Source: a virus (taxonomy: Duplodnaviria; Caudoviricetes). Taken from it: a stretch of DNA of 63,271 nt. The DNA is taken from positions 1 through 63,271 of the IMG/VR virus record IMGVR_UViG_3300008459_009572; one strand, 5' to 3'. Positions 39,649 to 42,917 of the stretch are shown piece by piece. Position numbers and translations under genes: made by a program. The notes under the pieces were generated by a model. The model was not told the origin of the DNA. It searched no databases and saw only the letters and a program-made list of their open reading frames with translations. The number at the start of each line of letters is the position of its first letter. The stretch's first letter is position 1.

Positions 39649-40251
39649 ATGCCTGCTGCTAAAATATATAGTAAGGAAGATATCCTACGTGCGATGCGCT
39701 TCACAAAATCAAATCGTGCTGCTGCTCGTTATTTAGGATGTTCCTATCAACATTATAAACCATATGCTAAATTATTTAGAATAGATGAATCAGACCCAAC
39801 TTCTCCTACTCTATTTGATGCTCACAAAAACCAAAGCGGAAAAGGAATCCCAAAATTCCTCCCTAACAGAAGAAAAGAACCAAATGTCAAAAACATTGTT
39901 GAAAACGGAACAGGATGGGAATCCTTCACCCCAGACAAAATCAAAACAAGATTAATTGCTGAAGGTTATTTAAAGGATGAATGTTATCATTGCGGGTTTT
40001 GTGAACGTAGAGTAACTGATTATAAAATACCTTTACTATTACATTTTAAAGATGGAAATAAATTTAATTATCTTATTGATAACCTTGAGTTACTTTGTTA
40101 TAATGACTACTTCCTATTGGTTGCAGACCCACTTACCCCTGATCAAATCAGACATATTGAGGATAGCTCTACTGTTAAGGCAGTTTCCCACGATTGGGAT
40201 TTAGATGAGACTCATCTTGAAAATATGAAAGCATTGGGACTTTTGGATTAG
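39649..40251 (+). CDS. HTH plus degenerate HNH-like domain protein
   Basis: SNRAAARYLG helix-turn-helix; CYHCG...HFKDGN...NLELLCYN. Confidence 0.65.
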   Translation: MPAAKIYSKEDILRAMRFTKSNRAAARYLGCSYQHYKPYAKLFRIDESDPTSPTLFDAHKNQSGKGIPKFLPNRRKEPNVKNIVENGTGWESFTPDKIKTRLIAEGYLKDECYHCGFCERRVTDYKIPLLLHFKDGNKFNYLIDNLELLCYNDYFLLVADPLTPDQIRHIEDSSTVKAVSHDWDLDETHLENMKALGLLD

Positions 40252-40588: not shown

Positions 40589-40810
40589 ATGGCACAATAT
40601 TTTCAAGTTAAAGTACAATTCACAGTAGAAGTGAACGGCAAACTAAAAAAGCAAAGCGTAAATTATCTAGTAGACGCAATGTCAGTTACTGAAGCAGAAG
40701 CTAAAACAGTAGAATATCTTACCGCTCAAGGTGAGAATGAATTTGAAGTTAAAGCAGCTTCTGAATCTAAAATTGCAGGGATAATTCTTCAAGAAGAAGT
40801 AGCAGAATAA
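40589..40810 (+). CDS. DUF4494-like protein (Bacteroidota and their phages)
   Basis: YFQVKV...YLVDAMSVTEAEAK...ESKI. Confidence 0.7.
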   Translation: MAQYFQVKVQFTVEVNGKLKKQSVNYLVDAMSVTEAEAKTVEYLTAQGENEFEVKAASESKIAGIILQEEVAE

Positions 40811-40839
40811 AAATTATATATTTAAAACAAAAATAAGTT

Positions 40840-41061
40840 ATGATTTGGTACATTTACATTGTTAGCGTTATTTACTGCATTTGGAGAATGACTAGAGGTT
40901 ATAAAAGAACTTTTGGTTCTGGCAATCCAATAGGTCCAACTCCAGGATTGGAAACTATATTCATTATAGTGTTTGCTCCCGTACTTGCAGTAGTAGATAT
41001 CACTTTAACCTGGATTAGAAAGGTTAAAGAAGCTAACAACGATAATGAATCAATCATTTAA
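40840..41061 (+). CDS. Small membrane protein
   Basis: Two hydrophobic segments. Confidence 0.6.
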   Translation: MIWYIYIVSVIYCIWRMTRGYKRTFGSGNPIGPTPGLETIFIIVFAPVLAVVDITLTWIRKVKEANNDNESII

Positions 41062-41062
41062 T

Positions 41063-41219
41063 TGTCAGGTGGTGAAAGAGCCTAGGCTATGGCATACACA
41101 CCCACTCGTCTCGTGGGCGCTGAGTTCGAAATAGGTAATTGGATATGGGTTGACCACAAAGCCGGCTATTTTGTTCATTACCGAATCGCAGCATGGAGGT
41201 TCAAATCCTCCCCTGACAG
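41063..41219 (+). ncRNA. tRNA-like RNA with GTC at the anticodon position, enlarged D-loop and 77-nt variable region
   Basis: Acceptor TGTCAGG/CCTGACA+G; anticodon arm CCCAC-TCGTCTC-GTGGG; T arm GGAGG-TTCAAAT-CCTCC. Confidence 0.75.
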
Positions 41220-41300
41220 CGGAGTAAGCAGCTCGCTCCCACATGGCATCCAGTCCGTTAAGCTGGAGAATCTGCTTGACAGCTCGGAAAGACGGGCTAT

Positions 41301-41387
41301 GCCCTTGTGGTGAAATTGGTAGACACGCAGGACTTAAAATCCTGTTCGCCGAAAAAGCGAGTGCGGGTTCAAGTCCCGCTGGGGGCA
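41301..41387 (+). tRNA. tRNA-Leu(TAA), CCA not encoded
   Basis: GCCCTTG/TGGGGGC+A acceptor, D-loop TGGTAGAC, CAGGA-CTTAAAA-TCCTG, long variable arm, GCGGG-TTCAAGT-CCCGC. Confidence 0.93.
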
Positions 41388-41423
41388 CAGATAGTTATAT
41401 GTATGGCATGCCATTATTTATCA

Positions 41424-41729
41424 ATGAAAAACAGTGATGAGTTCTACCTCAAATTAAAAGGTAGAGACCCAGATATTGTTTTAAAAATGGTGAAATGCGT
41501 TTTAAGTGCTTATAAAAGAGGTAAAGATCAAATTGATATATTTGATATTACTTTTAAAAATATGGATCAACTTACATTTACTATTGATAAATCACAATAT
41601 AAAGAATTACTCAGTAATTGTATGAATGATTTGATTGGAATGGAAGAATATGAGTTGTGTGCTGAGATAAAAAAGATATTAGAGGGGAAAAAAAAACGAG
41701 GCAGAAAACCAAAAGAAGAAGTTCTTTAA
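41424..41729 (+). CDS. Hypothetical protein with C-terminal UVR-like motif
   Basis: MEEYELCAEIKKIL; start reassigned because the longer ORF runs through tRNA-Leu. Confidence 0.65.
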   Translation: MKNSDEFYLKLKGRDPDIVLKMVKCVLSAYKRGKDQIDIFDITFKNMDQLTFTIDKSQYKELLSNCMNDLIGMEEYELCAEIKKILEGKKKRGRKPKEEVL

Positions 41730-41734
41730 CATAT

Positions 41735-42192
41735 GGGGCATACCGGTATCGATTCGGATGATGAGGTAATACTACATGCAGGCGTTTGGTAGAGTCGCCT
41801 TAGAAAACTGCAAACAATAACTGACGAAATGTCAACTATGACCTTCGACGACCTTATGGCGTTCGTAGGCGCCGACTACGCTTTAGCAGCCTAGTCCGCA
41901 AACAGGTGGGTAACCTAGGAACAGAACTACTCCGAGCGCTCACGATCGACTCGTTAAATAAGGACCGTGTGGTAGTCTCTTAACGGGGCCAAGTTTCCTG
42001 ATGTCATAAAATCAGGTGGTGGAAACGACCATAAAGGTCAGTCCCTTACAGTACAGAGTTGGTCGCAAGACTGATGGAGCAAAGAAGAGATAAAAGCTAC
42101 TACCCACATCTCTTACAACTTAGTACTAAGCATGTGAGACGTTAGTATTATTGTCACTTTCGAAGACCTGGGTTCGAATCCCAGATGCTCCA
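41735..42192 (+). ncRNA. ssrA: tmRNA; tag reading frame 41823..41894 (DEMSTMTFDDLMAFVGADYALAA*)
   Basis: GGGGCAT/ATGCTCC+A acceptor with G3-U70; 5' GGTATCGA; T arm CTGGG-TTCGAAT-CCCAG; ATAACT before resume codon; tag ends YALAA. Confidence 0.93.
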
Positions 42193-42202
42193 CAATTTCT
42201 CT

Positions 42203-42260
42203 ATATTTATAGATGTAGAAAAAATAAGGTTGTATATGAAGATATACAGCCTTTTTCTAT
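42203..42260 (+). promoter_or_regulatory. ATATTTAT motif followed by leader hairpin, copy 1
   Basis: AAGGTTGTATAT-GAAG-ATATACAGCCTT stem; similar element at 50655..50716. Confidence 0.6.
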
Positions 42261-42275
42261 TTAAAAATTAAAAGT

Positions 42276-42917
42276 ATGAAATCATTATTGGTTAGTGCAA
42301 AGGAAAGATTACTGCTTGTTTTTCTTTATTTAGTAGGAATTTTAGTTACGTGTGCTTTAGCCACACAACTTTTCTTTGTATTTCTAGATATGACTGGTAA
42401 AAGTGAGTATGCTACTCAATTAGCAAGAGAATTTAGTTGGAAGTTTGATGATGCATTTAAAAATCATCCTAACAATATAAATTATGTTGCTGAAGATCAT
42501 ATTTATGTTCAAAGTGTAACTAATCTAGTTAAAGTAGGCAAATTAGCAGGTAATCGCAATTTAGAATTTGGTGTTAAAAATGTCTTAGAAGAATTTCTTC
42601 AAGAAAAAGGATATGATTTAACACCAACAGCATCTTATTATTTAGATGTTGATATTATTTATTTAGATGTATTAACAACTAAAAAAAGTTTATCCGTATT
42701 CAGTAAAACTGAAAACGAAGTAGTTATAAGACTAAAAGGTACTCTCTACAACGAAGGAAAAAAAGAAAAAGAGGTGTTAGTAGAGGAATCATCGTCTGAA
42801 ATTTCAATGGCTACCCTCATAGTAGATACTGGGGGTAAGTTTAATCAGGCCTCTTTAAGTTCTGCGCTTAAAAAGGGTTGTGACAAACTTATCACCAAAT
42901 TATTTACTAAAGAATGA
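42276..42917 (+). CDS. Membrane-anchored envelope protein (possibly CsgG/LptE-like alpha-beta domain)
   Basis: N-terminal TM; C-terminal FNQASLSSALKKGC resembles FNQSTVSIATKKAL of 48266..48985. Confidence 0.5.
   Translation: MKSLLVSAKERLLLVFLYLVGILVTCALATQLFFVFLDMTGKSEYATQLAREFSWKFDDAFKNHPNNINYVAEDHIYVQSVTNLVKVGKLAGNRNLEFGVKNVLEEFLQEKGYDLTPTASYYLDVDIIYLDVLTTKKSLSVFSKTENEVVIRLKGTLYNEGKKEKEVLVEESSSEISMATLIVDTGGKFNQASLSSALKKGCDKLITKLFTKE

Follow-up and report, generated by a model that had tools for sequence, protein, structure and literature searches.

A conserved tRNA-Asp-shaped RNA with a long structured variable arm in tRNA clusters of uncultured freshwater phages

Described tRNA-like RNAs and the phage locus

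Bacterial tRNA-Asp is recognized through the strong determinants G73, G34, U35, C36 and C38, together with the bacterial determinant G10 and the minor determinant G2-C71, and its G1-C72 pair is strictly conserved, according to the identity sets given in PMC9976931. Among the most conserved positions of tRNA are U8, A14, G18, G19, A21, G53, U54, U55, C56, A58, C61 and U33, and a purine at position 37 (R37) is semiconserved, by the account of conservation in PMC10424219. A helical variable arm, placed after the anticodon arm and before the T arm, characterizes class II tRNAs (Ser, Leu, Tyr, and Sec), and the described "allo-tRNAs" have long ones too (PMC5389517). A tRNA-like module fused to a large extra domain is found in tmRNA and in the tRNA mimics of bacterial Y-RNA-like YrlA RNAs (PMC4201824). 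The T4 RNAs rnaC and rnaD ("species 1 and 2") are small stable RNAs that lie inside a phage tRNA cluster and adjoin a tRNA. Finally, DNAVirus_1850 is one of the csRNAs in a catalogue that lists 10,006 candidate structured RNAs of viruses; it is reported to occur 27 times in IMG/VR, with only one site overlapping an ARAGORN tRNA-Asp call, and is given no anatomy or function there (PMC10690425).

The window, the whole 63,271-nt stretch of viral DNA analyzed here, encodes at 41063-41220 on the + strand a real, conserved phage RNA that is shaped like tRNA-Asp and has an extra arm of about 77 nt. It belongs to a large family of uncultured freshwater phages that is absent from Rfam. With canonical tRNA-Asp(GUC) (RF00005) the family shares the 7-bp acceptor and 5-bp T stems, the anticodon arm, the core, the elements GUC, C38, G73 and G2-C71, and a setting in tRNA arrays. 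The canonical molecule, in contrast, has a variable region of 4-5 nt rather than 69-80 nt, lacks the optional D-loop hairpin, and begins with G1-C72 where the family has U1-A72; position 33 of the family is not a fixed U, position 37 is a pyrimidine, and where these phages have a canonical tRNA-Asp it is encoded by a different gene. Compared with class II tRNAs and allo-tRNAs, the arm is several times longer, internal loops interrupt it and its apex is conserved, and the anticodon is that of Asp. The acceptor/T configuration is 7/5, as opposed to 8/4 or 9/3. Where tmRNA has a tag ORF and no anticodon arm, this RNA keeps an intact anticodon arm. An AUG-GGN-stop mini-ORF can be read in most apexes but fails in about 7/73, which read GGGGUUGACC (alignment read by eye), and it was discarded. 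Rfam at E up to 10 gave no match to tmRNA or YrlA families except an 8.3-bit T-arm fragment. T4 rnaC has a T-arm-like hairpin but the predicted folds of rnaC and rnaD contain no GUC anticodon arm, and homology to them was rejected, as the family model reached 14.3 bits on rnaC and did not hit rnaD, against 11-40 bits on ordinary T4 tRNAs (highest on tRNA-Leu at 40 bits, with tRNA-Ser at 30 bits). The occurrence pattern of DNAVirus_1850 is what this family would show, and it may be the same RNA.

Standard annotation passes over the RNA. Neither ARAGORN nor RF00005 called it in the window or in seven related loci, and across 40800-42400 Rfam gave it no meaningful family even at E up to 10. A blastn search against 50,697 GenBank phage records left the RNA unmatched, with only the neighboring tRNA-Leu finding matches (17 records), and a clade-2 member of the family matched nothing in the same set.

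Anatomy, covariation and genomic setting

The features of the RNA, all within the window, are as follows.

41063-41069, + strand: 5' strand of the acceptor stem, TGTCAGG, pairing with CCTGACA at 41212-41218
41072-41099, + strand: D arm, with a 3-bp stem (GTG 41072-74 / CAC 41097-99) and an enlarged D loop
41079-41088, + strand: D-loop insert AGCC-TA-GGCT, a perfect 10-nt palindrome
41091-92, + strand: G18G19 of the D loop
41101-41117, + strand: anticodon arm, with a 5-bp stem (CCCAC 41101-05 / GTGGG 41113-17)
41106-12, + strand: 7-nt anticodon loop UCGUCUC, with C33, U37 and C38; GUC is 41108-41110
41118-41194, + strand: variable region, 77 nt
41119-22 / 41189-92, + strand: V1 helix of the variable region
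41123-26, + strand: 5' bulge of the variable region
41127-29 / 41186-88, + strand: covarying 3-bp helix of the variable region, CGA/TCG
41130-33 and 41183-85, + strand: internal loop of the variable region, AAUA/GAA
41134-45 / 41172-82, + strand: long helix of the variable region, leading to the apex
41147-41157, + strand: apex motif GGGUUGACCAC, predicted to be mostly unpaired; contains GAC, the complement of the anticodon
41160-41167, + strand: apex palindrome AGCCGGCU
41195-41211, + strand: T arm GGAGG/TTCAAAT/CCTCC, with a 5-bp stem and the loop UUCAAAU
41212-41220, + strand: 3' strand of the acceptor stem, G73 (41219) and C74 (41220); CCA is not encoded

An earlier note on this DNA had described perfect acceptor, anticodon and T stems, a 10-nt hairpin in the D loop and a TCGTCTC loop with C33 and U37; all of these can be read directly in the sequence, and the stem pairs covary in the family. 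Its pairing scheme for the variable arm held in part: GCTG/CAGC and GGTAAT/ATTACC covary, but GTTCG/CGAAT is specific to the window and unconserved, its place being taken by the covarying CGA/TCG helix, and TGGATA/TGTTCA as written overlaps GGTAAT/ATTACC at A41177, a conflict that one bulged T41140 settles. The stems of the RNA (acceptor 7 bp, anticodon 5 bp, T 5 bp) and its 7-nt anticodon loop are those of an elongator-tRNA cloverleaf. The minimum free energy fold of the single sequence gives this same cloverleaf, yet it is weakly better than chance (z = -1.76, with 11/200 shuffles folding equally well), and the structural support therefore comes from covariation among homologues.

IMG/VR contigs yielded 145 complete homologues (120 distinct) in 233 viral loci, some on phages of up to 321 kb; roughly 20/118 viral pattern matches are chance matches inside coding sequence. 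In 73 distinct aligned sequences, compensatory changes occur in 32/40 base pairs and 97.6% of pairing cells are paired, against 40.8-53.4% when the partners are slid; none of 500 shuffles attained these values. Changes on both sides affect 7/7 acceptor pairs, 2/3 pairs of the D stem, 5/5 of the anticodon stem, 4/5 of the T stem, and 3/4, 3/3 and 8/11 pairs in the helices of the variable arm. At the end of the acceptor stem, U1-A72 (72/73), G2-C71 (72/73) and U3-A70 (71/73) are near-invariant. The arm measures 69-80 nt in these sequences, the D loop ranges from 11 to 34 nt with its insert optional, and the whole RNA from 109 to 176 nt. The earlier note's view that the locus is not simply decaying is thus borne out: homologues keep both expansions, and contigs from RNA libraries contain the RNA. 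Four true members were found among the at least 120 stretches listed in a scan of genome contigs; two of them lie on short contigs in bins of Chitinophagales and Cytophagales MAGs and therefore give no sign of a cellular copy.

The conserved core positions listed above for tRNA, apart from U33, are all invariant (73/73). The Asp identity elements that the earlier note pointed out are conserved as well, with GUC present in 120/120 distinct members (53 of them gathered with a pattern that left the anticodon unconstrained), C38 in 69/73 and G73 in 73/73. C74 is also invariant in the 73 sequences, which were gathered with a pattern that left out the 3' end, and the conserved unit is for this reason taken as 41063-41220. 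The anticodon loop is always 7 nt long, and its flanks vary: position 33 is U in 64, C in 46 and A in 10 of 120 members, and position 37 is U in 109, C in 8 and A in 3. Among 522 distinct ordinary tRNAs of the same loci, 521 have U33 and 518 have a purine at 37. The elongator rule of U33 with a purine at 37 is thus broken both in the window RNA and in the family. U37 also occurs in two phage tRNA-Asp genes of normal size (L057 and L310), so that U37 alone is not proof of lost decoding.

The apex of the arm has the core U(U/A)GAC(C/A)AC in 116/120 distinct members, an invariance that is partly ascertainment because the first collection pattern contained the motif, and the loop at the base of the arm is conserved across the 120 distinct sequences. 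The family includes short-arm variants (the second copies at L194 and L267, and L314, L324 and L347), which lack the apex motif and, by eye, any apex GAC. Pairing of the apex GAC with the RNA's own GUC, extended to position 37, was considered and rejected, since it showed no consistent covariation (N37/apex combinations UU 35, UA 35, AU 2 and CA 1 of 73; the A33/C37 clade carries UAGAC in the apex). A search of the window for antisense targets of the apex returned three matches at no more than two mismatches, including the motif itself, where 4.45 would be expected.

The RNA sits within phage tRNA operons, in the window as part of a tRNA-tmRNA gene cluster, and is often found directly 3' of a phage tRNA-Ser. 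Its neighbors in the window are the following.

40840-41061, + strand: 73-aa ORF resembling a two-helix membrane protein, ending 1 nt before the RNA
41301-41388, + strand: tRNA-Leu(UAA), called by ARAGORN and by Rfam RF00005 (55.8 bits), 80 nt downstream of the RNA
41735-42195, + strand: phage tmRNA (Rfam RF00023, 61.8 bits), 515 nt downstream of the RNA
42226-42253, + strand: predicted terminator-like hairpin (consensus match), the sole one on the + strand of 40840-42300

When 1,068 ORFs lying within 5 kb of the 73 loci were clustered, no protein partner was consistently linked to the RNA; in 29/73 distinct loci a homologue of the 73-aa ORF closely precedes the RNA on its strand, spurious ORFs cover the RNA genes, and other clusters occur in at most 12 loci. 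These minor clusters include a metallophosphoesterase-like protein and an HNH endonuclease. A PHROGs search found no family for the 73-aa ORF, and its Atlas neighbors are unnamed viral clusters. Pfam searches of 75 window ORFs gave no synthetase, tRNA-repair protein or amidotransferase among the matches listed (25 of 36 families in the first batch).

Readings of the altered loop and the long arm

Several readings have to be weighed against the view of the RNA as a non-decoding mimic of tRNA-Asp, which we prefer. An intron-containing or decaying tRNA-Asp gene, in which the 77 nt would be an intervening, selfish or neutral insertion, is very unlikely. Without the arm, the variable loop would be of class I size, and the intron mode of ARAGORN labels 9/89 homologues "tRNA-Asp with intron", but the arm helices covary, its base loop is conserved, and the insert lies in the variable region, outside the anticodon loop that holds self-splicing group I introns, and Rfam at E up to 10 shows neither an intron nor a ribozyme in it. 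Contigs from four metatranscriptome runs (four studies) cover 41063-41213 unspliced and with the arm included; they cross both junctions and none has a joint that skips the arm. The unusual intron suggested by the earlier note is accordingly not borne out. These are Logan contigs of 90-100% identity, which may represent relatives with differing flanks or DNA carry-over; their depth, zero over 40840-41035 and 41232-41280, cannot rank expression, and an uncovered part proves nothing. The main rival is a working elongator tRNA-Asp whose loop flanks and additions would be adaptations against a host anticodon nuclease or a modification-dependent toxin, and which would sustain GAC/GAU decoding once the host and canonical phage tRNA-Asp are cut; we regard it as less likely than the mimic. 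The invariant GUC, the constant 7-nt loop and the complete core and Asp determinants all fit it, and variation at 33 and 37 around a fixed 34-36 is the pattern of an arms race at the loop flanks. Evasion of anticodon nucleases, colicin E5 being named, through anticodon-loop mutations of phage tRNAs has been put forward in an eLife paper (PMC10264068). The U37 of the two normal-size genes points the same way, as does retention of the RNA by phages with very few tRNAs and no canonical tRNA-Asp (G005, G006, G012, G013, G014, and G015). Against decoding stand the frequencies at the loop flanks themselves, with C33 or A33 in 56/120 and a pyrimidine at 37 in 117/120 members, compared with 1 and 4 exceptions among the 522 ordinary tRNAs. 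An arm of 70-80 nt, together with a D-loop hairpin that varies freely between 0 and about 23 nt, would also be hard to fit through the A, P and E sites, and the loose sizes of the D loop and of the whole RNA argue against tight ribosomal constraints. Moreover, canonical tRNA-Asp (loop CUGUCAC, G1-C72) stands alongside the RNA in 9/16 carrier records searched whole (9/10 of those with 17 or more tRNA-model matches, 4/6 of those at least 90% complete). A role in which SerRS, rather than AspRS, charges the RNA because of its long arm, making it a missense or non-translational seryl carrier, appears highly improbable. The bacterial Ser determinants, as set out in PMC9976931, are G73, C72, G2-C71, R4-Y69, C11-G24, G30-C40 and a large variable region. 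Of these, the family conserves G73 and G2-C71, the arm is very long, and the RNA is a frequent 3' neighbor of tRNA-Ser; yet position 72 is A and not C in 72/73 and C11-G24 is present in 28/73. SerRS does not read the anticodon, so charging by it would leave the absolute conservation of GUC and the conservation of C38 unexplained.

A further possibility concerns the form in which the RNA acts and is compatible with either a mimic or an elongator. In this doubtful reading, palindromes at the apex, and often in the D insert, pair between molecules, and the active form is a dimer or oligomer. A perfect 8-12-nt palindrome lies at the apex site in 106/116 members, in at least 25 different sequences, whereas about 7.5% of shuffles have one of 8 nt or more, and D-loop inserts contain perfect palindromes of at least 8 nt in 28/76 cases, against about 5.6% of shuffles. 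A hairpin needs no self-complementarity in its central four bases, and the 10-nt and 8-nt sites of the window would give stems of a mere 2-3 bp as hairpins. On the other hand, 48/76 D inserts form plain hairpins that lack a palindrome of this kind. The energy that RNAcofold predicts to be gained on dimerization, -9 to -20 kcal/mol in 20 members and -13.4 for the window RNA, is not better than that of 15 shuffles of the window RNA (-4 to -18). Template-switch correction of quasi-palindromes at the level of DNA could also keep them perfect without selection on the RNA. A more elaborate form of the idea, which we hold to be more doubtful still, is a tRNA-shaped assembly, acting as such and not as an adaptor, in which the apex and D-insert sites join copies so that several GUC loops and GAC triplets are displayed, and which might trap dimeric AspRS, a nuclease that reads GUC, or tRNA-Asp itself; the unpaired apex may present a GAC "codon" beside the joint.

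A proposed mimic of tRNA-Asp and its meaning for phages

Judged by its sequence, the molecule is a tRNA-derived RNA that has kept the whole L-shaped core and the Asp recognition set, has lost U33 and purine 37, the loop rules needed for ordinary decoding, and has gained a structured arm and often a D-loop hairpin. We tentatively favor, at a probability of about 0.45, a mimic that is matured like a tRNA, is probably recognized by AspRS and does not decode in the ordinary way, the arm being a module for docking or self-pairing. Such an RNA would be co-transcribed with the tRNA/tmRNA cluster, cut by RNase P at U1, trimmed at its 3' end and given CCA as its neighboring tRNAs are, and would then adopt a tRNA fold with an extra helix of about 18 bp projecting from the core. 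AspRS would recognize and probably charge it through G34-U35-C36, C38, G73 and G2-C71, and it would not serve as the ordinary Asp decoder of the phage. U1-A72 in place of G1-C72, and G10 in 44/73 members, speak against recognition by AspRS. Class II AspRS approaches tRNA from the side of the variable loop, and the long arm might therefore hinder it. With its conserved base loop and apex, the arm may be the module at which a protein, or another copy of the RNA, docks. The least certain step is the role itself, which would likely lie in a contest between phage and host over tRNA-Asp, for example in tying up a nuclease or other enzyme that recognizes GUC loops; the RNA may likewise be the anticodon-nuclease decoy or synthetase sponge that the earlier note suggested.

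It is now recognized that phage tRNAs act in defense and counter-defense; they reportedly neutralize PARIS and are said to help phages evade retron-based defense. The family described here is a different and far more elaborate remodeling of tRNA, seen in at least 120 distinct sequences and kept even by phages that are nearly devoid of tRNAs. Because tRNA finders and Rfam miss the family, inventories of phage tRNAs are incomplete. If the RNA is a non-decoding mimic, it would represent a new class of phage tRNA-like effector, to which the invariant GUC, the acceptor end and the modular arm offer handles. If instead it decodes, its arm would go far beyond the known lengths of variable arms in translated tRNAs, all of which are, to our knowledge, far shorter. 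Were the multimeric assembly real, the family would be a natural multimer that consists of RNA alone and uses tRNA as its scaffold.

Anatomy of the tRNA-like RNA

The window record is about 38% complete by CheckV (63,271 bases, an IMG/VR virus), holds nearly all of its long ORFs on the + strand, and includes among its Pfam families family B DNA polymerase, GroEL/GroES, GTP cyclohydrolase I, thymidylate synthase, ClpP and many sugar-nucleotide enzymes. The tRNA-like structure that the earlier note described in this record was accurately drawn: the cloverleaf parts are present as read, and the minimum-energy fold of 41063-41219 is exactly the cloverleaf read by eye.

Features of the RNA and its neighbourhood (cloverleaf parts read from the sequence)
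39649-40251, +, HNH endonuclease gene, 0.8 kb upstream of the RNA (PHROGs, E = 2.9e-8)
40840-41061, +, 73-aa ORF with a two-helix membrane-protein look; stop codon 1 nt before the RNA
41063-69 with 41212-18, +, acceptor stem, 7 bp
41072-74 with 41097-99, +, D stem, 3 bp
41079-88, +, 10-nt palindrome AGCCTAGGCT inside the enlarged D loop
41091-92, +, GG, positions 18 and 19, D loop
41101-05 with 41113-17, +, anticodon stem, 5 bp
41108-10, +, GUC of the 7-nt anticodon loop UCGUCUC (C33, U37, C38)
41118-41194, +, variable region, 77 nt
41147-57, +, apex motif GGGUUGACCAC (family core U(U/A)GAC(C/A)AC)
41195-41211, +, standard T arm
41219, +, discriminator G
41735-42195, +, phage-encoded tmRNA, 461 nt (Rfam, 61.8 bits), without an ARAGORN call in the window

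The gene sequence lacks CCA. The fold energy is mildly better than that of shuffles (z = -1.76), 11 of 200 of which fold equally well, and a single window sequence is no proof of a real RNA. ARAGORN makes no call at this RNA, its sole call in the window being tRNA-Leu(UAA) at 41301-41388, and Rfam at E values up to 10 finds the tRNA-Leu and the tmRNA and no family for the RNA itself.

Homologues, covariation and conserved positions

Comparison with homologues from viral contigs settles that the RNA is real. A first collection of loci, anchored on two neighbouring proteins, contained a full-length match in 14 of 56 loci, and a 13-sequence alignment shows compensatory changes in every stem. Scanning viral contigs for the apex motif yielded at least 118 stretches, the non-matching ones being chance matches in coding sequence; together with the protein-anchored loci, at least 95 loci had a match. 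Because such a pattern biases the apex, a second scan drew its pattern from the 3' part only, leaving anticodon, D loop and apex unconstrained, and yielded at least 119 stretches, with 59 new ones among the matches listed. The 233 viral loci collected hold at least 145 complete copies and at least 120 distinct sequences; the 120 collected measure 117-176 nt (median 160), and short variants are as small as 109 nt.

RNAalifold predicts 40 pairs for an alignment of 73 distinct sequences, and 32 of them show changes on both sides, which bears out the earlier view of a tRNA-like RNA that is not simple decay. In this structure 97.6% of cells pair, versus 40.8-53.4% with partners slid by 1-3 columns, and 500 shuffles all fall short of the observed values. 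The expanded variable arm is itself conserved, both-side changes occurring in 3/4, 3/3 and 8/11 pairs of its helices. One detail of the earlier drawing fell away: the GTTCG/CGAAT pairing is not conserved, and the covarying helix is CGA 41127-29 with TCG 41186-88.

The arm (69-80 nt in the 73 sequences) consists of a 4-bp base helix, a 5'-side bulge of 4-5 nt, a second helix of 3 bp, an internal loop that is conserved (in the window AAUA facing GAA) and a long helix of about 11 bp leading to the apex, where an unpaired motif with the family core (116/120 members) is followed by a perfect palindrome of 8-12 nt. Short-arm variants keep the arm base and carry a plain hairpin in place of the apex, which makes the base module apparently the more universal part. 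Two short MAG-binned contigs carry tandem pairs, one copy with the apex motif and the other short-armed (L194:4269-4628 and L267:3832-4161, numbered loci of the homologue search; the MAG of the former is assigned to Chitinophagales). Not all members need carry the D-loop insert: across the 73 sequences the D loop measures 11 to 34 nt.

A self-complementary centre is no requirement of a hairpin. Palindromes nevertheless occupy 106 of 116 apexes, in at least 25 different sequences (about 7.5% of shuffles), and 28 of 76 D-loop inserts (about 5.6% of shuffles), pointing either to intermolecular pairing at these sites or to a DNA-level process that keeps palindromes perfect. By cofold calculation the family could not be told apart from shuffles.

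Across the 73 sequences U8, A14, G18, G19, A21, G53, U54, U55, C56, A58, C61, G73 and C74 are invariant, U1-A72 and G2-C71 each occur in 72 and U3-A70 in 71, whereas bacterial tRNA-Asp has G1-C72. The GUC anticodon is present in 120/120 distinct members, including 53 collected without anticodon constraint (automatic parsing handled 52; the remaining one shows a single stem mismatch and the same loop), and C38 in 69/73. Strong aspartate determinants, as set out in PMC9976931, are G73, G34, U35, C36 and C38, with G2-C71 minor. The RNA thus retains these strong determinants and all that tRNA folding and, presumably, maturation call for. Counts over 120 members are U64/C46/A10 at position 33 and U109/C8/A3 at position 37; among 522 distinct ordinary tRNAs called by ARAGORN at the same loci, 521 have U33 and 518 a purine at 37. 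According to PMC10424219, U33 belongs to the most conserved nucleotides of tRNA and R37 is semiconserved; the family drops both of these positions, which are tied to decoding geometry. Two of the four ordinary tRNAs without purine 37 are normal-size phage tRNA-Asp genes whose loop reads CUGUCUA (U37, A38), at L057:588-662 and L310:1781-1854.

Genomic setting and RNA libraries

Family members are part of tRNA arrays of phages, where many lie immediately 3' of tRNA-Ser or near tRNA-Leu(UAA) and phage tmRNA. Homologues of the 73-aa ORF, for which PHROGs has no family and which, among named Atlas clusters, comes nearest to a GhoT/OrtT-like one at only 0.81, form the 5' neighbour in 29/73 distinct loci, sometimes with tRNA-Ser between; no enzyme is consistently linked to the RNA among the neighbours at these 73 loci. 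The sole + strand terminator-like hairpin in 40840-42300 follows the tmRNA, a position that weakly fits one transcription unit. ARAGORN-called tmRNAs of relatives have either long tags ending in GADYALAA/GADYAVAA or short ones ending in ANEYALAA. In relatives (L048, L049) copies related to the HNH gene lie to either side of the RNA, a pattern suggestive of mobile insertion into this cluster of RNA genes. GC-rich non-coding stretches, shared among L043, L048, L077 and L123, recur there 100-300 nt 3' of the RNA, and Rfam at gathering score has no family for them.

A model derived from 17 canonical tRNA-Asp genes of phages was run over the full length of 16 carrier records. In 9/16 the family RNA is accompanied by a canonical tRNA-Asp (loop CUGUCAC, G1-C72), these nine being 9/10 of the records with at least 17 tRNA-model matches, and both RNAs occur in 4/6 records at least 90% complete; in six records, each with 0 to 6 matches, the canonical gene is missing and the family RNA is kept. 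The family RNA is therefore something other than just the phage's tRNA-Asp, and by this survey it is one of the last tRNA-like genes that a phage loses.

Other unusual tRNA-like genes occur at the homologue loci. L149:12799-12937 (+), about 450 nt downstream of a family member, has that member's acceptor stem and a D-loop hairpin without a normal anticodon arm, and is called 'tRNA-Gln with intron' in ARAGORN intron mode. L307 encodes, on the locus minus strand, a tRNA-Asn(GUU) of about 86 nt with an extended variable arm and a family-like UGU...ACA-G-C acceptor end, and 19 of 28 phage tRNA-Gln genes start with UGU; both may bear on the family's origin. The same mode splits tRNA-Gly(UCC) by about 2.6 kb at L102:1279-4028 and L157:5505-8159, which may reflect a large intron or inserted element.

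Sequence words of the RNA's region recur in six metatranscriptome runs, and four of these, from four studies, were compared to the window, with contigs at 90-100% identity. The contigs cover 41063-41213 in pieces running from the anticodon arm through the variable arm (for example 41063-41168, 41070-41160, 41097-41172 and 41143-41213), and one piece matches the window identically over 64 nt; tRNA-Leu and tmRNA are likewise covered, and 40840-41035 and 41232-41280 have zero depth. As contigs that show neither ends nor strand, some clearly from relatives with other flanks and with DNA carry-over possible, they give moderate evidence for a stable RNA with its arm retained. The earlier suggestion of an unusual intron finds no echo in them: contigs of all four runs cross the arm in unspliced form, and none contains a joint skipping it, which is evidence against splicing.

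Relation to known RNAs and proposed working

The family resembles tRNA in fold and probably in maturation, and we do not file it as ordinary tRNA-Asp because it departs from elongator tRNAs at U33/R37 and in variable-region size or tool detectability. The nearest analogues are T4 stable RNAs C and D, also in a tRNA cluster and of unknown function; homology to them was rejected, since rnaC scores 14.3 bits and ordinary T4 tRNAs range from 11 to 40 bits. A tmRNA or YrlA-type mimic was ruled out by Rfam. DNAVirus_1850, listed in a catalogue of candidate structured RNAs of viruses published in 2023, may be the same family, compared by description only; the sections of the paper at hand report it 27 times in IMG/VR, with an ARAGORN tRNA-Asp overlap at one site only, and give neither anatomy nor function (PMC10690425).

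We infer, at a probability of about 0.45, that tRNA machinery would mature the family RNA and add CCA, that AspRS would recognise and probably aspartylate it through GUC, C38, G73 and G2-C71, that N33, Y37 and the unconstrained bulky additions would exclude it from ordinary decoding or make it a poor decoder, and that the arm would serve as a docking or self-pairing module. The main competitor, which we hold less likely, is a tRNA-Asp that does decode and that escapes a host anticodon nuclease by its loop flanks and bulk; loop mutations have been proposed as a phage-tRNA escape from such nucleases (PMC10264068), and the two normal-size tRNA-Asp genes with U37 fit it. That self-association is the key property of the RNA, a notion compatible with either of these readings, seems improbable. 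Charging by SerRS we regard as very improbable, and an intron or decaying gene, set against the arm-crossing contigs and covarying stems, is scarcely credible.

The finding is real and, to our knowledge, so far without any detailed description: blastn against GenBank phage records gave no match to the RNA, and our literature search found no account of a giant variable arm on a tRNA-Asp-like RNA from a phage. The RNA represents a widespread phage family, supported by covariation and probably expressed, that joins a tRNA-Asp-like body to a very large structured variable arm, and its invariant GUC with free flanks, invariant acceptor end, conserved arm base and perfect palindromes offer direct experimental handles.
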